DNA of 64,000 nt, taken from positions 1 through 64,000 of the IMG/VR virus record IMGVR_UViG_2526164662_000021. The stretch is one strand, 5' to 3'. The position numbers and the translations under genes were made by a program. Under the pieces are notes generated by a model. The model had not been told where the DNA came from, did not search any database, and worked only from the letters and a program-made list of their open reading frames with translations. The stretch is from a virus (Duplodnaviria; Heunggongvirae; Uroviricota; Caudoviricetes). Of this stretch, positions 5,015-60,326 are shown one piece after another (position 1 is the stretch's first letter; each line of letters starts with the position of its first letter).

Positions 5015-8000
5015 TTATGCGTATTGTTGGATGACGGCCAGAACGTCCGCCACGTTGTGTTTTGTCTCGATAATCCACCAGTTACCTGGGAAGTCGCTGT
5101 TCTTCGCCTTCGCTGGCAACCAGCGAGCGCCGAATTTCGCCTTGATTGCGTCTTTCGCACGGAAAAGAACCCCTTTCATGCCGGAGGCTTCCTGAAGCCC
5201 AAATACCTCGCCAGCGGCGAATTTTGGTGCGTACATCATCTTCAGGTCGGCGGTGGATACGCGATAATTCAGACCAAGAGACTGAGCTATGCTGGTGGCA
5301 TCACCCTGTATTGATGATAACTCTTCTTGTTTCTCGTTTCTGGCAGCAATTTCTTCCTCCGTGATGTTGCCAAGGGCCAGGTTTATCCGATCAGCGTCTG
5401 CCTGTTTCTCTTCATCGGTGCGCCCGGCAAGTACCGTGTTAATTCTGTGCAATATCTCCACATGATTCTTGCGCATGCTGAGCAATTCCGGCGTAACCTC
5501 GTTAAGGTCCACCAGCCCAAGGATGGCAAGGTCGGTAAACATTGATACCAGGTTGTAGGTCATGCGATAGCTGAGTTGCCCATAGGCTGATGGCAACTGC
5601 ACCGCATCCATTTTATAGGCATCCATAAATTTAGAGCCGTCGTTTACGACATCCGCAATTGCCGGTGTGATTTTTCCTGTGGTGGCGGCCTCCCTGATTG
5701 CTGTTACCCACGATTGAGTCAGCGCGGCGACTGCATGATTCAGATTGACTTTCCGTTCTGCTGCAATGCGCGCGCTTGCTGCGTCCATTGCCTGCTTGAT
5801 CTCGTCTTTATTGCTGTAAATGCCAATGGTGCCAAACTGTGCTGTGGTGATCTCATAATCTGACGCCCGGAACTCATTGGTACCGAAAATGGCATTGGTG
5901 ACTTCAAGTTCAGAATCCCCGTTACGAGTAGCCCCCTGGCTTGTTTTCTCCGGCATTCTGGCGATCGCATCCGCTATTTTCTCCTGAATTGCTTCAGGGG
6001 ATAGCGTATCTCCGTATGACGCGATTACATCGCCATAATTGGAGCCAAACAGTTCAACCAGGAATGCTTCTGCCGAACGGATCTGGCGGTTATTCCCTTC
6101 CGACATCATACCAAGCACCCATTTTGCAATTGACGACTTCAGCGCGCCGTCACGGCGATCCGGGTAAACCGCATGCTTCAGTGGGTCCGTATAGGTACCA
6201 ACAAAATCAATGCTATAGCCTGACTCTGTAGTCTGAACGCCGTATGAGTCAGTGATTTTGATCATGCCGCGCTGCTGGAAACGGTAGAAATCGTCACAGG
6301 AAACGATGTCGTTAATCCCGGCGATGGAGACGCCACCACTGATTTTCTGCATAACAGCATCTTCATCGGGAGTTACATCAACCTGTTTATCCAGCGTCTT
6401 CACATCCCAGTTACCAGATTTGGTGCCTTTGAAGGTGAAGATGATCTCCACGTCTGCGCGCTGGCTGTCGAAGTCCAGCGACTTAATGCGAACGATATCA
6501 CCGGCACAATCGTAGTATTGGCCTACACGCCATGAGCGATCGCCGATAACAAGGAACTCACTCGCATGGTTAACCAGGTCAGGATCAACATCCAGAATGC
6601 CTTTATTTAATGCATCCTCCACCAGCGGGCGCAGGCGTTTGATATCCGTCGCGGCCTTCTGAGTACGGTTCAATAATTTCTCATAGCGGGAGATGGCTTG
6701 AGAGATATTAGCCTTGCGCTGAATGGCGCTTTTCAACGACGCGCGATACTGTGCTAACAACATACGGTCTGTGTGATGGACACTCCCCCAGCGTGCCTTC
6801 CAGTCTGCGTTATCCGCTGCCTTGGCCATTGCCGCCTGTTTGAATTTAGCTACCTCGGCGGTGGTCTTTTCAAGTTCCGCTTTGCTTCGCTCTAATTCAG
6901 CGGTAAGCACCTCCACATCCTCACCAGCTGCGTGCTGCGCCTTGATGTAGTTCTGAAGGTCGATAGTAGCCTGTTCTTTCTGGCGAGCGCGTTGCGCGGC
7001 TTTCGCCTTATCCATTTGAACCTGCATCATTGCCAGACGTTCGCCATCATCCTTAGCGGTATACATCTGCATTTCGATCATATCGTTGGCGTCGGCGTTC
7101 TCCATTTCTGACTTATCTGAACGGAGGATATCGGAGATCCAGCCTGCTTTACGCTTCAGCGTCTTCAGTCGGTATTCATCGAAAGAACCCTTGCCGCAGT
7201 AGTAGTGAACGCGAACGCTTGCACGGTTGGAGCCAACTCGGGCACCGCGACCGTTTCGTTGCGCAATACTGGCTGGAGTCCATGGCAACGTCAGATGATG
7301 GATGTCAGTCGTTCCTCGATGCAGGTTGATACCCACCTCTGCCTTTTTGTTGCAGATGATGATCGGAGTCCGGCCCTCCTGGAAGTCGGCTGCAATCTTT
7401 TCCAGACCGCCCAACGACATTTCATTTTGCTGCGCGATATAGGCGTCATACAGAGCCATTTGCTCGTTGTATTTCGCTATCTGTGCATCTGTTGGTTCAT
7501 CCGGTAACTCTTTCGGCGGTTTAACCGCTTTCAGTTTCTTACCGGTTTTACCTGCCTCGGCAACCGTCTGAGCATTCAGTATCCCCACCTTTGAAGGTTC
7601 AAGGTTAAGAGCATTGCAGATAATGCGCTTGAGCTTCTGGTGCTGCGTTTTTTCATCGGTGAAGATGATTTGCTTACCTTCCGGGAAAAACTCCTTCAGC
7701 GTGGCAATCAGCTTCGCGTATTTGGGCGTAACGGGGTGAGTTACGGTCTGTTCGTCAATGCCAAACCTGGCCAGGCGCTTATTCACTTCCTGCTCGAACG
7801 CTTCCGGAACCTGCAACTGAATAAACTCGCCCTTATCTATCAGGGAGTATTGCGATTGCTGCGTGATTGAATCATCACTGTCGTCGTCTTCGCTGGTGGC
7901 TTGTTTAGGCAAACTGTCTGCCAGCTGCTGCACCGCATCGGCGTACTCCGGCAGGAAACGATAGGTGATCCGGCGATAGTACAGGTCCATGTCAGTACAT

Positions 8001-11000
8001 ACGCGGTCCATATCCCTGATTATTGAGAAGATCGGACGGGCTTTCTCGTGCTCAATCACGCCGTCTTCATTGACCGAGGTCGTTACACCATTGTTGGCTT
8101 TGGCCGCCGCTTCCGCCTGCTGACGCAATTCTTCATACGCCGCCAGTTGTTCTTCAGTAAGTGGTGCATCCTGCTGGTGTTCGTCCAGTTCCGGGATCTC
8201 CACGGTATCCTTAACGTCTTCCGCCGTTTTAAGCGTTGTCCAGCGATGGAATATGCCGCGCAGCGCATCAAGGTTTTCAAAACCCACCAGCGCCATTTTT
8301 TCTTCAACTTCGCCGCTGATTTTCTGTACCGTTTCCAGCCTGGTCTTGCCGAAGAATTTTACGAAGTCATCAGGACTGTAGATCCCCATCTTCTGCCAGT
8401 ATTCCTTCGGCAGAACATGAGAAAGCATGTTGTATGCATCGATCGGGGTGTTAACGACTGGTGTTGCAGTCAGGAGAACCGGTCCGCGCCCGCCATTCTT
8501 TTTCATCAAGTACGCGTTTTTGATTGCCATATCTCGCGCCGATTGCGCCACCGCGCTGGTGGGCAGATAGGCCAGCTGTGACGCTTCGCGACCATTTTTA
8601 TAGCTATTGCGGTAGTTGTGGCCTTCGTCAGCAATCACGCTGTCGAAGCCCATATCCTCAAAGTACGGATACTTCTCTGCTTTTTCGGTACCGGTATCTG
8701 AATACTCCGACAATACCCGGCGACGCGCCGCCTCTTTGCGGTGGGAGTCGGAGTCCATTGCGCTGGCTACGCGCCCGGCGGCAACGAAGTCATAAAGCAT
8801 GTCTTGTGCATGCTCATCTACGGTGTCATCACGTAGCGGAATGCGGGCGTATTGTTCTTTGGTAAACACGACTGCACGGTAATTTGAGTGCGGGATCGCG
8901 TTCATCCGCGCCGTGATAGTGGCTTCATCTGCCAGCTTAAGAGCATCGCGCATAACTGGAGTGCCATCAGTACCAAGAACAGGTTTACCGTTCTCATTGA
9001 GCACCGGCACCTGGCGAATCTGATCGCCATCCATCAGCACATCAAGACCGACGAACAAGTAGTTACTGAATGCCTCTTCACTCAGGAATTCTTTTGCTTC
9101 GTAATACCAATTTTCCAGCACTGATTTAGGCACTACATACGCAGTACGGGTGGAGCGACCGTTCTCATAGTTGAACGCCTCAAGCGCCAGCGCGGTCGTG
9201 GTTTTACCCAGCCCGGTGCCGAAGCCCAGGATGCCGCGCCCATCTTCGGACAGTCGGCGCACCTCGCTATTCTGGTAATCAAATGGCTGGCGCTTACCGC
9301 TTAATCCCTTCAACCCAAGCGGATCGCCAGAGTGTTCATACGGGATATTGCTATTGAACACATCGTTGTATTTGGCAACCAGCTCATCGTAGCGATCGTG
9401 CGTCTTGATCCACTTATTGAACTGGTCCTCAAGCAGTGCCATCTGCTCGCGGTAGCCGTTCGCCGTCGCGCTATCTTTGCCACCGATACGCGCACCATTG
9501 AGATACTTTTCCAGCTGTGCCGGGAACCCGGTCGCGTTTTCACCTGATTTACGGTCCCACTCGTAGCGAATCTCACCTGTTTCTTTATCCTTGCGCTGGA
9601 CGACACCGTATCGGTGCCCGACGAACAGACCATCACCACCGTGATAGGTGTCAGAAACCATTTCGTCGCCTTCCAGCTGCACTGACTGCACATAGCGCAG
9701 ATCCGGATAGCCGTTTTCCTGCAAAAATTCCAGAATGACGGAACGGTCGAACCAACGGCTATTGAGCTTAAACCGGATATTCTCTGCTGGCGTCTTGATG
9801 CGCTTCTCTTCGATAGCTGCCAGCTGATTAAGGACGTTGTTCTTTACTGGACCGTCGGGGAGTGTGGCGAGGAATTCCTGTTTTGGAGCCACTATCTCGT
9901 TAATGTCGCCGCTGGTGGCGCGGGCGAACGGAACAATCCCGCCATACGGTGAAACCGCAATACCAGGGGTGCTGGCCAATAAATTAAGCAACTCTTCATC
10001 ACTGGCTGGCAGTTCGCCGGTAAACGCAAGGCGGAAATCATCGAGCTGGATTGGATCGCGGGTGAGATCGCTATAGAGATAACGCAGGGTGTCCTGATAG
10101 CTGGTGGAGTCATAACTTGCGCTGGAATCATGCGTAACCAGCTTCCCTGTCAGCTCGTCAGAAATAGTGCCATCCAGCTTAATTGCACCACGGAAAGCAA
10201 ACCAGGCGCGCGCACCGCTCCCCGACAATTTCGCTATCGGACCGCGACCGGGGTTACCAAAACGGTCAATCTCTGCCTGCAAACGGGATACCAGAGAAAG
10301 GCGCTGCTGTTCGATTTGTTCAGCACTATGCCCGGCGGCCTTCATGTCCTGATATTCAATTAACATCCGGCCAATCATCGCCCCGCGATACAAGCGTTCA
10401 CGGTATTTTTCAGGCTGGCTGTTAATCCAGTCCACCAGCTGCACCATATCGTCGCTGATTGATGTGGTGTACTTATCGCGGACATTTGCCATCTGGGTAA
10501 ATGTCATGCCGAGACGGCCTTCTGTTGTAGTCAGGTTACGCTGAAGAGCCTCCCAGCTATCCGCGCCATAACTGGCAGCATCGATCTTAAGTTCCTTCCC
10601 GGCATCAGCTTCAATCCAGCGACCACCAGCATATTTTTGCCATACGCCATTAATCAGGCGCATTTCCCCTTCACCAACAACGTCTGCGGTCGGTGACGGT
10701 TCAGCCATATCGAGCAAAGACCAGTCGATACGGCTTTCGAAACGATGAATCAGCTTCGCTTTAAGAGCCTGGTTATCAATCTGACCGTCGGCACGAACCT
10801 CAATACGCCCCTGGAAGCCCTTTTCCTGGGTGCCATGAACAAACCGGCGGCCATCCTTTTCAAACCACTTGCCAGAAATAAACGTTGGCCAAAGCACATT
10901 TGCCGATTCGAGAGTGCTTTCATCCACCAGGGGGATTTTCTCAGCCATCTCTGCCGGATGTTTGCGCATCAGCACCACATCAACAACTGTACTGGTCCCG

Positions 11001-55229: not shown

Positions 55230-56231
55230 TTAAGGCTTCGGCTTTTTATCGAGGCTCTTTCTAAGGATATGCCCAATCATCCTGTCGAGTTCTTCCTGTA
55301 GCTCTTTTGAAAGTCGATTAAACTCATAAGAAAATGCACGGCCTTTCACGCGCTTCCTTGCAAAGCGATCCTTGTCCTCAAATTTCCATAATTCAGTAAC
55401 TACGGACTTATCTTTAGAACCTTTATCCGTGAGTAGTGAGGCTTCCTTTGTTATCAAGCGCAGGATTTTATTTTTAACTTCATCTTCGGCCATTTCTTCA
55501 ATGGATAAGATGTCGTTTATTTCCGGGGATATATTTTGAATAAGCTGATCAAACTCTAAATTCTTGTTCCCCATTTCGTCGCCAACAGCACAAAGCGTTT
55601 TGTAGTCCGAAAAGGTTAATTCCGACTGCACAGGGAAAAGGGCGACTAATTCTTCCGGAGCACTCGCTGCCTGGAGAGCACGCGTGACCTTCGCCTGAGA
55701 CAGCCCTTCTTTGGCTGCAATATCCTTCTGACTCATCCCATCATTTTTCATTCGCATCAAACGCAGACCTATTTCTCGAATGCTGTGCTGCAATGCTGTC
55801 TGAACGTCTTTCGCTAAATTTTGCGCTTCCTGAACGCTGATCTCCTGGTCCGTGACTAAAACCCGCAACCCTACGTTCTCTAAGATGGCAGAAGCTCGAC
55901 GCCGGGAACCATCCAAAATTTCAATTTTCCCTGTTGCCCGTCTAACACCTATTGCAGGGTAAAATTGCTGATGCTTAATAGTGCTTCGGATACTTTTTAA
56001 TGATTTTGGCGTAAGAGATGCCTGGTCACGCCCGTTGTTATGCTGATCAACAAAGGTATCGCTTTCTACCTGGTTCGGAGGTATTACCTCTTCAATAAAT
56101 GTGGCCTGGCGACCAGTTGATAACTTGAATACCTGCTCGACTCGATCGCCAGAGGCTGAAGAACTATCAAATCCGCTTAATATTGAAGGATTAAGGGTTC
56201 GCCCAATTGTTGGTCTGTTTTTCTTTGACAT
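55230..56231 (-). CDS. parB: ParB partition protein
   Basis: 333 aa as in P1 ParB; downstream of parA; parS follows. Confidence 0.9.
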   Translation of the reverse strand: MSKKNRPTIGRTLNPSILSGFDSSSASGDRVEQVFKLSTGRQATFIEEVIPPNQVESDTFVDQHNNGRDQASLTPKSLKSIRSTIKHQQFYPAIGVRRATGKIEILDGSRRRASAILENVGLRVLVTDQEISVQEAQNLAKDVQTALQHSIREIGLRLMRMKNDGMSQKDIAAKEGLSQAKVTRALQAASAPEELVALFPVQSELTFSDYKTLCAVGDEMGNKNLEFDQLIQNISPEINDILSIEEMAEDEVKNKILRLITKEASLLTDKGSKDKSVVTELWKFEDKDRFARKRVKGRAFSYEFNRLSKELQEELDRMIGHILRKSLDKKPKP

Positions 56232-56247: not shown

Positions 56248-57444
56248 TCAGTTAGATCTGATAAATTCAATACGGTCAAAAACTGCTTTAGCAAAATCTT
56301 CCGCGGCAATTCGCGCGTTCTTCAATGCATCAGCACTACCAACATACGTTGCCGGGTTAGCTGAAATAACAGTGTCAAAAGACTCGCCGCAACGTTCAAA
56401 ACCGTCAAGGCGAGGGAGGACGACATCGAGCATATCCCCACCGAACACTTCTTTAGCCAGGCTATGGCAATACTTATGATCTGCCTTGTTACTCAACTTG
56501 GACATAAAACCAATGTTAGTCGCAAGCTGGCACTCGCAGCCTTCATCCGAAATGAGTTTCACCAACTCAGGAAGGCGGGCAACGTATTTAAGCGATGAGT
56601 GGAAATCGACAGTTGCTGGCGGCAGAGGTGTAAACAGTATATTGGCCGAGGCCAAAGCATTTTTCAGGAAGGCGTCAAGGTGAGGACCACTATCAACGAG
56701 GATAAAATCATAATCGCTCTTCAGCTTATCAATCACATTTTCTTTCAGGACAGCATGGATGTTCTGACCCGGTAGATGCTCATTGCACAGCTCTCTCCAA
56801 TCGGATGCAATAAAGGCATCGTCAATCGACGCAGGCATAACGTCAACCCCAGGTACAACAGAAGGAACAATAAACTCCTCTAACAGCTCTTCACGGCTTA
56901 CATTCTGCAACATAGCCTGTGCAGATGTTGCGTTTACGATACCAATAGAGTGTTTATGGCTTAAAAACATCGTTGCTGAAGATTGCGGATCAAGGTCAAT
57001 AACCAGAATCCTTAAATCTTCCATCAGAAGATGAGGGTGAGCACGCATTGCATGCGCCAGAGAAACCGTCGATACAGTTTTTGACACACCGCCTTTAAGA
57101 TTGGAGATGAAAATCACATACGCTTCGCTGTAGCGATCCCGGTATTTTGGCACTCCGCGATGTTCATATATGTCAATGATGTTCTGAATTGACATCGCAT
57201 ATTTCATTGAAGAGCCAGCAGGGCGCTTATCGAAAACATAACCCTTTTCTTCCATTTCACTTACAGCATAGTCAACGTTCGCTCGAGTCAGTAGAGGCAA
57301 TTTTGCCAGTGCCGCTTTCGCATAGACCTGGTAAAACTCGTTCGCGTGTAGCTCATCCTTTTGCAACTGTACTTGTTCAGTCAGAACATTGAGCATTCTG
57401 TTTGCTCTTTGAGCAACCTTGTGAAGCTGGCTGGAATCACTCAT
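56248..57444 (-). CDS. parA: ParA partition ATPase
   Basis: 398 aa (large ParA with N-terminal regulatory domain); Walker A KGGVSKT. Confidence 0.9.
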   Translation of the reverse strand: MSDSSQLHKVAQRANRMLNVLTEQVQLQKDELHANEFYQVYAKAALAKLPLLTRANVDYAVSEMEEKGYVFDKRPAGSSMKYAMSIQNIIDIYEHRGVPKYRDRYSEAYVIFISNLKGGVSKTVSTVSLAHAMRAHPHLLMEDLRILVIDLDPQSSATMFLSHKHSIGIVNATSAQAMLQNVSREELLEEFIVPSVVPGVDVMPASIDDAFIASDWRELCNEHLPGQNIHAVLKENVIDKLKSDYDFILVDSGPHLDAFLKNALASANILFTPLPPATVDFHSSLKYVARLPELVKLISDEGCECQLATNIGFMSKLSNKADHKYCHSLAKEVFGGDMLDVVLPRLDGFERCGESFDTVISANPATYVGSADALKNARIAAEDFAKAVFDRIEFIRSN

Positions 57445-57584
57445 CGAAAGTCATCCTTTATGCTGTATTTTTGAATTTAATTAAAAATGCTGCATAAAAT
57501 AATAATGTATGCGCAGATGCTTGTACATAGCATTCTCTGCATGTTTGATTCATTTTTCACGATTGAGAGTTGCAAGGCGGGCAC

Positions 57585-57605
57585 AAAAAAGCCCCGTTCA
57601 GGGGC
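57585..57605 (-). terminator. Intrinsic terminator after the T5orf172 gene
   Basis: GCCCC-tgaac-GGGGC followed by T6 on the minus strand, 8 nt after the stop. Confidence 0.6.
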
Positions 57606-57612
57606 ATCAGTG

Positions 57613-58422
57613 TTATTTGTTAAGAGCTGCGAATAATCGTTCGAAATCGATAGTATATATAGCACGCGTAAGCGCCGGAAGTTCAGCCTCAAAGTACCCG
57701 TGTCGATCGTAAAAGAAGGGACCAAAGAGCGAGGAATGTTGGATTCTACTTCGCCCCAGCCCGGACACACAGTTAAGTCCATTACCGGATAAAAGGCTAA
57801 AAAACTTCTCTGGATTATCGTGGTAAAGCTGGGAATCAATGGTGGCAGTTAACTCTTCCATAGGGAAGCACACCCGCCCAGTCTCCCAGGAATATTTAGT
57901 CCGAAGCGTAAACATCGCTTTCAGCAATTCACATTGAGCGCGGATCGCGTCAGGTTCATAGCCAGATATGGAGACATAAGCCACATCCCTCATTCCTGCG
58001 TCATCTTTGAAAGTCACGATAGAAGTAACATCCAGTTCTTTTTCGAAAGAGCGAGCAGCATCTACTGGACGCTGAAGTAAATCATTCGACTTAATCCGCT
58101 CAAGAATCCCTCCCCACATATCATTTAGGTATTCGATATGAGCCAAAACCTTATCAAGACACTCTCGTGTAAACCATTCAGTATGCCCGCCACCGGCGCT
58201 TTTCTCCCACGGCGCATTCCAGGGGAAAAAGGTTGCGTGTAAAGCCCGCTCAAGATTAACCATTGCCAAACGCGTACCACGATAGACCCGTGAAAGCGCA
58301 AAATCGGGACTCACTTGTAGCCCTTTAAACCGTGCCAATGGACCACATGAAATGCCGATTTTAAAAGTATCTCCGTTCTCCGGCACCAGAACGTAGAGGT
58401 AGTGTTGTTTCTCTTCTTGCAT
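57613..58422 (-). CDS. T5orf172 (GIY-YIG-like) domain protein with C-terminal domain of unknown function
   Basis: 269 aa; N-terminal YLYVL...GDTFKIGIS...RFKGLQ...LERALH...TEWF pattern; own terminator. Confidence 0.6.
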   Translation of the reverse strand: MQEEKQHYLYVLVPENGDTFKIGISCGPLARFKGLQVSPDFALSRVYRGTRLAMVNLERALHATFFPWNAPWEKSAGGGHTEWFTRECLDKVLAHIEYLNDMWGGILERIKSNDLLQRPVDAARSFEKELDVTSIVTFKDDAGMRDVAYVSISGYEPDAIRAQCELLKAMFTLRTKYSWETGRVCFPMEELTATIDSQLYHDNPEKFFSLLSGNGLNCVSGLGRSRIQHSSLFGPFFYDRHGYFEAELPALTRAIYTIDFERLFAALNK

Positions 58423-58457
58423 ATCAATACCACTGCTTGATGAGAACCGCGCAAATG

Positions 58458-58714
58458 TTGACTATGCGCGAAAGTTAATGTGAATAGTTGACTATGCGCG
58501 ATGTGACTACAGTCAAAAGTTGACTGTAGTCGATTTAACTCCACCAAAAATCGACTATGTAAGATATTGTCGGGAGAAACGTTGACTATACGCGATGAAA
58601 TGACCCTAAAAGCCATCTCAATAGCGACTTGCAGAATATTGACGCCAGCAAAAATCCACCAGCGTCAACGAATGTCGCCTATAGTCAACTTCTCGCTATC
58701 GCATATAGTCAATA
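58458..58714. repeat. incA-like iteron array downstream of repA
   Basis: At least 8 copies of TTGACTATGCGCGA-like repeats in both orientations. Confidence 0.8.
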
Positions 58715-59599
58715 TTATGGATTGCGCTTATGGATCTGGAAGCCGATTTTCCTGCCGTTTTTTATCTCTGAAAATTTAAGATATTCAATAGCTTCCAAAT
58801 CTTTCATAGCTTTTCTGATAACGCTATTTTGCACGCTAACGGATGATTTGAGATTAAGCCTTGCTCTAAGGCGCTCAATGCTGACAGGTGCCGGGTTGGC
58901 GGGTAGAGCCTCAAAGAATGTATACAGCACCTTGGCCGTCTCTTTGCGCCCGAGCTTATCCAGCATCTTCAGCTTCAGGATTCGCTTATAGTCAACATAG
59001 TAAAGTTCAGATAGCTGTTTCTGCGGCTGGATCTCGATAACATCAAGCTCGGTATTCAGGCTGCTATATGCCAACAAGTTGACGTTAATGTTATTGAGAT
59101 GACCTTTTGCCGCCGGGAAGCGGAATTTGACAACTGTCTGCTGAATGCGTGTCAGAGAGTCATCAATACTTTTACGGAACGCCTTTGAAAGGCGCTTACG
59201 TGGATAGCCGCATCGATCGGCAAACTCGGAGAATGGCAGGGTGATTATGCCGTCATCATCAGGTGCGTAGTCAAACAACGCGGAGGTTATGCCCACCCAC
59301 ACCTTAAAATCAGTATCCATATCCAGGCGTGGACCATGTATTTCAATTCCCTCATAGCCTTCCTGCTCAACAATTTTGAGGCTTGATAGTTCTTCGGTTG
59401 CGTTCGTTGTGTTTGTAGTAACTGACGATCCGCGACGTAGTGCCACATTGGTAGATTTTAAGGTTGGCACAAACACACCTAAGCGCAACAAAGCGATTGG
59501 TTGTATAGTGCTATTGTTATTGGGTTTCAGGCTGTGGATTTCTCCTGTATTTCCTGCAACTTCTTCAACGCTAAGGAAGCCTTTATTTTCTTCCGGCAT
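58715..59599 (-). CDS. repA: RepA iteron-binding replication initiator
   Basis: Rep_3-type protein (…GPRLDMDTDFKVW…); ATG at 59599 with GGAGAAA RBS; flanked by iterons. Confidence 0.85.
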   Translation of the reverse strand: MPEENKGFLSVEEVAGNTGEIHSLKPNNNSTIQPIALLRLGVFVPTLKSTNVALRRGSSVTTNTTNATEELSSLKIVEQEGYEGIEIHGPRLDMDTDFKVWVGITSALFDYAPDDDGIITLPFSEFADRCGYPRKRLSKAFRKSIDDSLTRIQQTVVKFRFPAAKGHLNNINVNLLAYSSLNTELDVIEIQPQKQLSELYYVDYKRILKLKMLDKLGRKETAKVLYTFFEALPANPAPVSIERLRARLNLKSSVSVQNSVIRKAMKDLEAIEYLKFSEIKNGRKIGFQIHKRNP

Positions 59600-59677
59600 C
59601 GTGGTTTCTCCATATGTGGCGCGGCCTGGCGTCATCTGGATTGCAGTTATCAACAACTGTGAATAGTCAGGCTCTAA

Positions 59678-59780
59678 AATCGCGTACAGTCAATGTTTCT
59701 GTCGCGTATAGTCAACAATAAATCGCGTGCAGTCAACAATAAATCGTGCACAGTCAACATAAAATCGCGTATAGTCAATG
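59678..59780. repeat. Origin iterons (incC-like), five repeats at ~21-bp spacing
   Basis: AATCGCGTACAGTCAAT-like repeats at about 59678, 59700, 59721, 59741, 59762. Confidence 0.8.
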
Positions 59781-59782
59781 TT

Positions 59783-59890
59783 GATCCCATTTCAGGCCAG
59801 AAATGGCGCGGCTTACAGCGATCCGGGATCTTCTTTGGATCTTCCTAGGTTCTCTTTAGGATCTGTTTATTGGATCTATGCTGTGGATAA
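59783..59890. other. Plasmid origin oriR accessory region: GATC repeats and DnaA box
   Basis: Six GATC sites, four as GGATCT repeats, plus TGTGGATAA (DnaA box) at 59882-59890. Confidence 0.75.
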
Positions 59891-59933
59891 GTTGAATAAA
59901 CCGGCCAATAAAGCCGGTTGGAAGGAAGCCGTA

Positions 59934-60326
59934 TTATTCTACGCTCTCGATAAGAAGACCATGTTCATAACATTTAAGCTCATCGCCTTCGTACAGGAAT
60001 TGGTATCCAACACCACCATCTTCATGGACATTAGGGAATAACTCATAACTCACTGAAGAGCAAATCACACCAATGCAGCGATCAACTCCTTCTCGTTCTT
60101 CAGTGCAGAAAAAATCCTCTTCGGTAAGAACATGAGTACATTGCTCATCAGCATAGGTCGGAAATACATGCTCAATGCAATCCGGGTGTTTTAAACCAAG
60201 CTGATCGGCAAGCTCGAAAGCACGACGGTATTGTTCAGATCCTGGCTTGCCAACAGTGATTTGCTCAATTTTGTAGATTGAAGTCGCTTTGTTGATAGTT
60301 TGCTTTACTGTTACTTTATCAGACAT
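59934..60326 (-). CDS. Hypothetical protein (130 aa; P1 upfA position)
   Basis: Synteny; Cys/His-containing, no motif recognised. Confidence 0.4.
   Translation of the reverse strand: MSDKVTVKQTINKATSIYKIEQITVGKPGSEQYRRAFELADQLGLKHPDCIEHVFPTYADEQCTHVLTEEDFFCTEEREGVDRCIGVICSSVSYELFPNVHEDGGVGYQFLYEGDELKCYEHGLLIESVE

Follow-up and report, generated by a model that had tools for sequence, protein, structure and literature searches.

The 64,000-nucleotide stretch of viral DNA analysed here (the window; positions 1 to 64,000 of IMG/VR record IMGVR_UViG_2526164662_000021) represents a P1-like phage-plasmid with a replicon of the p0111 type, a member of the RCS47/SJ46/JL22 group. We show here that a gene encoding a T5orf172-domain protein of 269 amino acids (aa), which lies between the initiator gene repA' and the partition gene parA, is carried as a fixed passenger by the p0111-type replicon module, at its left edge. 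The best explanation that we can offer, at a probability of roughly 0.4, is drawn by analogy: the protein would be a DNA endonuclease of two domains, sequence-directed and akin to free-standing homing endonucleases, that is tied to the p0111 module and biases its inheritance. The original prediction, made from the DNA sequence of the window, had described an open reading frame (ORF) inserted between the incA iterons and the parA promoter of a P1-type plasmid, and had proposed a single-gene defence or exclusion module. The position was correct: the ORF occupies 57613-58422 on the minus strand, between the repA-distal iterons (nearest copy 58453-58471) and the parA promoter Ppar (57527-57499). 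However, "inserted" turned out to be only partly right, as the gene is the end of a replacing module, and an insertion into P1 was dropped as an explanation. The gene and its module are composed as follows.

57613 to 58422, minus strand: T5orf172 gene (GIY-YIG superfamily), 269 aa, ATG start, from the ORF list and Pfam
58168 to 58401, minus strand: N-terminal T5orf172 nuclease-type domain, residues 8-85, with the motifs YLYVL, KIGIS, R31, E58..H62 and TEWF (E82)
57616 to 58125, minus strand: orphan domain at the C-terminus (approximately residues 100-269), which evolves fast and may be a DNA-binding winged helix
57585 to 57605, minus strand: intrinsic-terminator-like hairpin and T run, which ends the gene within the module
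57547 to about 59900: p0111-type replicon module, which replaces incA-repA-incC/oriR of P1 and has the nuclease gene as its left end, from BLAST breakpoints, fixed differences and four-gamete sites

Comparison with P1 by BLAST gives 99.2% identity up to position 57546 and 95.4% from 59796 on, and between these breakpoints a single 59-bp trace inside repA is left. This gap in P1 homology goes along with a divergent initiator (RepA' and P1 RepA share 41% identity) and with divergent iterons (those of RepA' are of the TTGACTATGCGCGA type and differ from the P1 iterons). Hence, we regard the nuclease gene as the end of a replaced replicon module and not as a simple insertion into the P1 incA-parA junction; the whole incA-repA-incC region has been exchanged. 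ParA, ParB and gp23 are 99.7-100% identical to P1, and parAB and Ppar are of the P1 type. The classical P1 (IncY) layout, with a P1-type RepA and 19-bp incC/incA iterons directly before Ppar-parAB, is not found in the window. In P1 itself, Ppar and incA iteron 1 lie only about 190 bp apart and this DNA is non-coding, in line with the expectation that P1 lacks the gene there. The surrounding 1.35 kb or so of the 269-aa ORF are 97.4-97.8% identical to phages RCS47, SJ46, JL22, phi456 and relatives, and match reference P1 only over the first 144-147 bases, which comprise the parA start and Ppar.

In a population comparison, 45 p0111-type and 56 IncY-type loci were used to place the boundaries of the module. 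The block of differences fixed between the replicon types begins at the left breakpoint and ends at 59895. Linkage to the replicon type is down to r2 <= 0.23 already 2 bp left of the module, and four-gamete sites are present at 57514, 32 bp outside its left edge, and at 59911, 16 bp past the last fixed difference on the right. Because linkage collapses just outside the block of fixed differences, the module is delimited to 57547 to about 59900, some 2.35 kb, its left boundary being 67 bp beyond the stop codon of the nuclease gene. Judged from the aligned sequences, the exchange takes in the functional origin and not the iterons alone: the right end of the module is the DnaA-box/GATC half of oriR (59796-59895), which can be aligned with P1 but has some 20 differences fixed between replicon types. 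The Cronobacter phage JK004 and the 95.7-kb P1-like contig L003 form one clade that has diverged from the clade of the window (about 80-89%; for L003 against the window, RepA' 84%, ParA 89% and gp23 80% identity), and the two differ from each other by this module swap, at boundaries identical to those above. Thus, both module types, with and without the gene, occur in two diverged P1-like clades. Among the loci compared, the p0111 module stands beside a P1-type par only (44/44), and the IncY module is found beside either a P1-type (25) or a P7-type par (31); within P1-type par flanks, the linkage of single-nucleotide polymorphisms to replicon type is nearly nil. About half of the natural P1-like phage-plasmids carry the p0111-type module in place of the classical P1 replicon. 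No donor of the module outside the P1-like elements was identified; the next-closest plasmid RepA among the matches listed has 49% identity and comes from IncFIB(K)-like Klebsiella plasmids (PLSDB), and PLSDB contains nothing closely related to L003. Two IMG/VR contigs (L116 and L117) encode, at 6001-8476, a third Rep type with identities of 49% to RepA' and 41% to P1 RepA; a P7-type parA follows about 420 bp later, and a T5orf172 gene is absent. If these contigs are P1-like elements, their sequences suggest that more than two replicon modules circulate at the P1-like locus.

On the minus strand, the origin iterons are followed by repA', two iterons, the inverted iterons, the 269-aa ORF, the terminator, Ppar, parA and parB, so that the neighbours of the nuclease gene are repA', iterons and parAB, together with the structural genes 23 and 22. 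The spacing between repA' and parA is 1271 bp, nuclease gene included. The remaining features of the region are these.

58453 to 58595: repA-distal iterons of the GTTGACTATGCGCGA type, in four good copies plus a degenerate one, oriented opposite to the origin iterons
58673 to 58713: two iterons directly after the repA' stop codon, in the orientation of the origin iterons
58715 to 59599, minus strand: repA', of the p0111 type and the Rep_3 family, 294 aa by the annotation of relatives
59675 to 59799: origin iterons, five copies with 21-22-bp spacing
57499 to 57527, minus strand: par promoter Ppar, outside the module and common to P1
56248 to 57444, minus strand: parA, P1 type, 99.7% identity to P1 ParA
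55230 to 56231, minus strand: parB

One further p0111-type iteron copy (ATTCGCTTATAGTCAAC) lies within the repA' coding sequence at 58980-58996. The program-listed repA' ORF starts at a TTG codon at 59656 (313 aa), while in the annotation of relatives the gene starts at the ATG at 59599 (294 aa); the extra 19 codons toward the origin iterons, which start at 59675, are probably not translated.

The nuclease gene is found wherever this module is found. It is present in all 45 p0111-type loci, in two of them as a partial copy only. PLSDB contains the module in 404 plasmids, mostly of 90-100 kb and non-mobilizable, the nuclease protein in 401 and RepA' at >= 99% identity in 394. Among 5426 complete E. 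coli genomes, 412 carry the gene, and 414 of its 421 places are plasmid-borne. No homologue of it was seen in any of 68 loci recovered with P1 RepA, a set that includes IncY-type and more distant loci, among them 67-86% identical variants and the third Rep type, and P7 and JK004 also lack the gene. The original prediction had named a homologous ORF in P1 and all its relatives as evidence against itself; P1, P7, JK004 and the 68 loci are all without the gene. Loss of the gene from P1 was dropped as a reading, as relaxed tblastn and blastn-short searches of IncY spacers (P1, P7, JK004, L100, L101, L112 and L116) found no remnant. A distant homologue, P0004, with 43% identity, is encoded in contig L003, where the order repA'-gene-parA is kept. 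As annotated, P0004 has a 41-aa N-terminal extension (L003 8001-8123), which is translated iteron DNA with a repeated AYSQH and thus a gene-calling artefact; in the alignment, the true start falls on M1 of the window protein. RCS47 gp090 and JL22 gp57 are the same gene at the same position, with 96-100% identity, and like the RefSeq p0111-type entries they are known by annotation only, as "GIY-YIG nuclease family protein" in RefSeq and as PHROG 2876 of unknown function. The allele of the window (57547-58460) is rare, since a 100% match was obtained only with NZ_JBWDPX010000002.1, a 101-kb plasmid of E. coli HCP17S3_I4 from pig; the other 411 matching E. coli records, one per genome, have 95-99% identity, and the matches listed about 97%. 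The IMG/VR lists of IncY and p0111 elements have no isolate identifier in common, the expected number being too small for this to be meaningful.

The N-terminal part of the protein had been predicted to carry a T5orf172 domain, and it matches the Pfam family (PF10544) over residues 8-85 (model positions 2-87 of 101) with 27.5 bits against a cut-off of 20 and E = 4.6e-6; the lack of such a match had been named as evidence against the original prediction. A match to the endonuclease family phrog_681 (E = 5.4e-9) was also obtained, and none to the canonical GIY-YIG family PF01541. The motifs YLYVL and KIGIS, residues Y10 and R31, the E58-x3-H62 motif and TEWF with E82 are invariant between the window protein and P0004. 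By motif inspection and by analogy with the T5orf172 nuclease Odn of phage ICP1, in which a conserved Glu is essential, R31 and E82 are a candidate catalytic pair (E180A in Odn; Barth et al., 2021, PMC8263062). The C-terminal part had been described as of unknown function, and this agrees with our searches. Residues from about 100 to 269 have no sequence match in Pfam, NCBIfam or the PDB, and the whole protein has none in NCBIfam. A HMMER profile search with the C-terminal domain through 1.84e9 representative proteins returned four matches, all members or fragments of the same family, and a word-indexed search found the family itself and one 43%-identical relative only. Profile searches with the N-terminal domain recovered truncated alleles of the same gene only, and scans of genome and viral contigs only copies of about 97% identity. 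AlphaFold (AF2) models are poor (predicted local distance difference test score around 55 in two runs, from alignments of 2-3 sequences), and both low-confidence models have a beta-alpha-beta-alpha3-beta3 pattern in the C-terminal region, which suggests a winged helix. An architecture of nuclease plus winged-helix DNA-binding domain is likely but unproven. Foldseek comparison with viral models (BFVD) gave weak matches to T5orf172 proteins, to a Hef-like homing endonuclease, to ICP1 ORF88 (Odn) and to a COG5527 Rep protein, the best being viral T5orf172 or Hef-like homing endonucleases; the fold-level resemblance of the C-terminal domain to Rep WH1 domains is weak.

Comparison of alleles and homologues identifies the 269-aa ORF as a real, coding gene that is still under some constraint. 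It is not a chance ORF, because the 43%-identical syntenic homologue keeps the full frame and the ratio of nonsynonymous to synonymous substitution rates (dN/dS) in the population is 0.32. The neighbours are much more constrained, with 0.02 for repA', 0.002 for parA and 0.05 for parB. Nonsynonymous divergence (dN) from L003 is 0.52 for the nuclease gene (0.29 in the N-terminal and 0.71 in the C-terminal domain), compared to 0.13 for repA' and 0.07 for parA. The gene is intact in 36 of the 45 p0111-type loci. Seven carry nonsense alleles of three independent origins (S112* five times, W68* and Q228* once each); of the other two, one is interrupted at nucleotide 293 by the joining of unrelated sequence (L044 6293) and one runs off its contig. 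The 231-kb plasmid pLR-46_1 (NZ_AP027538.1; L118 5001-5322) has kept the last 86 codons in an IS1-bounded truncation, and truncated protein clusters of 95-126 aa exist (111, 98, 97 and 95 aa among them). In contrast to the nuclease gene, repA', parA and parB are essentially always intact in p0111-type loci. Full-length p0111-type elements (e.g. L039) carry nonsense alleles, so the gene is not required for maintenance; by this allele record it is dispensable for replication and partition and much less constrained than its neighbours.

These data could also describe a decaying relic, that is, an old homing endonuclease or cargo gene that was fixed in the module and drifts toward loss, serving no function now. 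In line with such decay are the nonsense and insertion alleles of several independent origins, the occurrence of nonsense alleles in full-length p0111-type elements, and singleton substitutions at residues that are invariant between the lineages (P14L, P71S, E73G, T81A and G105V). However, dN/dS is still well below 1, four fifths of the copies (36/45) are intact, the distant lineage has kept the full frame and the motif blocks of both domains at 43% identity, and deletion of the gene was not seen in about 400 plasmids. We therefore consider a relic unlikely.

A homing-endonuclease-like passenger accounts better for the combined profile. T5orf172 homing endonuclease genes (HEGs) of phages have been described by a set of signatures, namely a HEG-type nuclease domain, variable presence, stops and truncations, and a position at essential genes and exchange boundaries (Barth, Dunham and Seed, 2023; PMC10448857). 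The window gene shows all of these: the T5orf172 domain scores above the gathering threshold; close relatives differ in presence of the gene, p0111-type loci having it and the 68 P1-RepA loci, P7 and JK004 not; three nonsense alleles, one insertion and one IS1 truncation testify to its instability; and it lies beside the essential repA'/iterons and parA at a recombination boundary. The arrangement of a nuclease-type domain at one terminus and a putative DNA-binding domain, suggested by low-confidence models, at the other would likewise fit a homing endonuclease. In the mechanism that we propose, the C-terminal part would be a rapidly diverging DNA-binding domain, and the protein would cut DNA in related elements without the module; the most plausible of these are IncY-type relatives of P1 with the same par system. 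The break would then be repaired from the gene-carrying element, or the rival would be displaced by the gene carrier. Inheritance of the adjoining replicon module would be biased thereby, either by homing or by marker exclusion.

The known T5orf172 HEGs of ICP1 and other phages, which are themselves putative, resemble the window gene in several respects (PMC10448857). They combine a T5orf172 nuclease with a separate targeting domain, are free-standing beside essential genes, vary in presence, have stop or truncated alleles and mark an exchange boundary. In contrast to them, the window protein has its nuclease domain at the N-terminus and an orphan domain at the C-terminus, and it has neither a CapR/DUF723/DUF4397 zinc finger nor a CxxC motif. 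The window gene is, furthermore, single-copy per genome, embedded in a plasmid replicon module and never absent from it. T4 offers a second group for comparison, its free-standing GIY-YIG homing endonucleases (Seg proteins, I-TevI architecture; see PMC10448857 and PMC8263062), in which an N-terminal GIY-YIG catalytic domain is joined to a C-terminal DNA-binding domain. The domain architecture, with the window protein's DNA-binding domain being putative, the intergenic free-standing position and the expected marker-exclusion or co-conversion effect on neighbouring genes are alike. A difference is that the window protein belongs to the T5orf172 subfamily and has no second-motif Tyr (KIG for YIG).

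Several observations weigh against a homing-endonuclease-like passenger. A p0111-type replicon without the nuclease gene was not seen among the loci, and neither was an empty p0111 site, and presence of the gene is confounded with, that is perfectly linked to, replicon type. Linkage disequilibrium is low over the whole P1-like backbone (r2 about 0.02), and frequent general recombination, with no nuclease involved, may be all that is behind the sharp boundaries. The left flank of the module has no fixed protective differences; any target would have to lie inside the IncY module or elsewhere. On the minus strand, the interval from repA' to the ATG of the nuclease gene yielded no sigma-70-like promoter. 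Finally, the gene has been kept in the same position over a RepA' divergence of 16%, and such long retention suggests some benefit beyond pure selfish homing.

Expression of the gene may depend on its upstream neighbour. The interval between repA' and the nuclease gene contains nothing promoter-like that is conserved with L003, there is no terminator between the two genes, and a Rfam scan of 57000-60200 gave no match at E <= 0.1. The nearest iteron is 31 nt upstream of the ATG, at a similar distance as in L003. Transcription would be weak and would probably come from read-through of the RepA-autoregulated repA' promoter over the iterons; the gene would then be co-transcribed with repA' and, as we infer, gated by RepA' where it binds the iterons. 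Downstream, the hairpin GCCCCTGAACGGGGC followed by T6 (57605-57591) begins 8 nt past the stop codon. This is the intrinsic terminator that had been assigned to the gene, but its stem is short, with 5 bp, and the fold is not separable from shuffled sequence (z = -1.4). Ppar (TGTACA-17-TATTAT), read from 57527 to 57499, agrees with the annotated P1 promoter.

A more specific version of competition is suggested by Odn (ICP1 gp88), a T5orf172 nuclease aimed at the origin iterons of a rival, with replicon-module swapping as the route of escape (PMC8263062). The window protein would be a plasmid-borne counterpart if its winged-helix C-terminal domain recognised iterons or another module-specific sequence of the rival IncY P1 replicon and the T5orf172 domain cut there, so that a co-resident P1 relative with the same par system is destroyed or converted and replacement of one replicon module by the other is driven among natural P1-like phage-plasmids. 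Common to both systems is a T5orf172 nuclease at a place where replicon modules, composed of initiator and iterons, swap between related elements, and there is the weak Foldseek match to ICP1 ORF88 (E = 0.57). However, the domain order is reversed, and target and activity have been demonstrated for Odn, while the window protein is known from sequence. A targeting domain with homology to an initiator's DNA-binding domain was not found either: the C-terminal domain gave BLASTP E values of 5.1 against P1 RepA and 2.8 against RepA', and hhalign against a 9-sequence RepA profile a probability of 0.2%. Mimicry of RepA by sequence found no support in these two comparisons and was dropped, and we judge a direct counterpart of Odn quite unlikely.

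A single-gene defence or exclusion effector would degrade incoming phage, plasmid or satellite DNA independently of the replicon module. Mobile elements in conflict do use T5orf172 nucleases, as ICP1 does with Odn against PLE (PMC8263062), phage-plasmids are known to carry defence cargo (bioRxiv 10.1101/2025.09.12.675607), the fast C-terminal domain and the high dN/dS fit an arms race, and the retention of the gene over long divergence also speaks for an effector. The defence module of the original prediction nevertheless received no direct support. In PADLOC-DB v2 no family matches either of the two homologues at E <= 1, and the gene has no defence-island neighbours. It lies outside defence islands and the known variable cargo regions, at a position that is fixed in all carriers, and is strictly tied to one Rep type. 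Furthermore, about 20% of the copies are inactivated, and an adjacent partner for the discrimination of self and non-self, such as a methylase or an immunity gene, is missing. An effector independent of the module is therefore doubtful, although a role in exclusion or competition is plausible and in keeping with the homing-endonuclease-like signatures.

T5orf172 domains have also been turned into regulators, as in the repressor CapR (PMC8096241). A domesticated DNA-binding protein of this kind would not cut, and would bind near the iterons or Ppar and tune replication, partition or phage genes. The location between iterons and par operator and the possible, model-based winged helix at the C-terminus fit this idea. 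It is at odds with the conservation of the candidate catalytic residues R31 and E82 and with the frequent null alleles, which argue against a core regulatory role, and IncY elements with an identical par operon work without the gene. A regulatory function seems very unlikely to us.

The gene itself is already annotated, and the literature notes it as of unknown function. We found no paper that links T5orf172 with P1-like elements, and two of the phage-plasmid papers found mention no function in their full text. New here are its membership in a sharply bounded, recombining replicon module, the orphan C-terminal domain, its dispensability and weak constraint, and the homing-endonuclease-like profile. 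P1-like phage-plasmids are common carriers of extended-spectrum beta-lactamase and other resistance genes, and they are typed by their two replicon types, IncY and p0111. Should the gene be a selfish element that drifts, it would be an ordinary passenger, and the main value of our analysis would be a corrected annotation of the region. If, instead, the nuclease biases the survival of its module when P1 relatives meet, this would explain the sharp bounds and the free reshuffling of the module as well as the coexistence of two incompatibility types, and it would extend the Odn principle from phage-satellite conflict to competition between plasmids.

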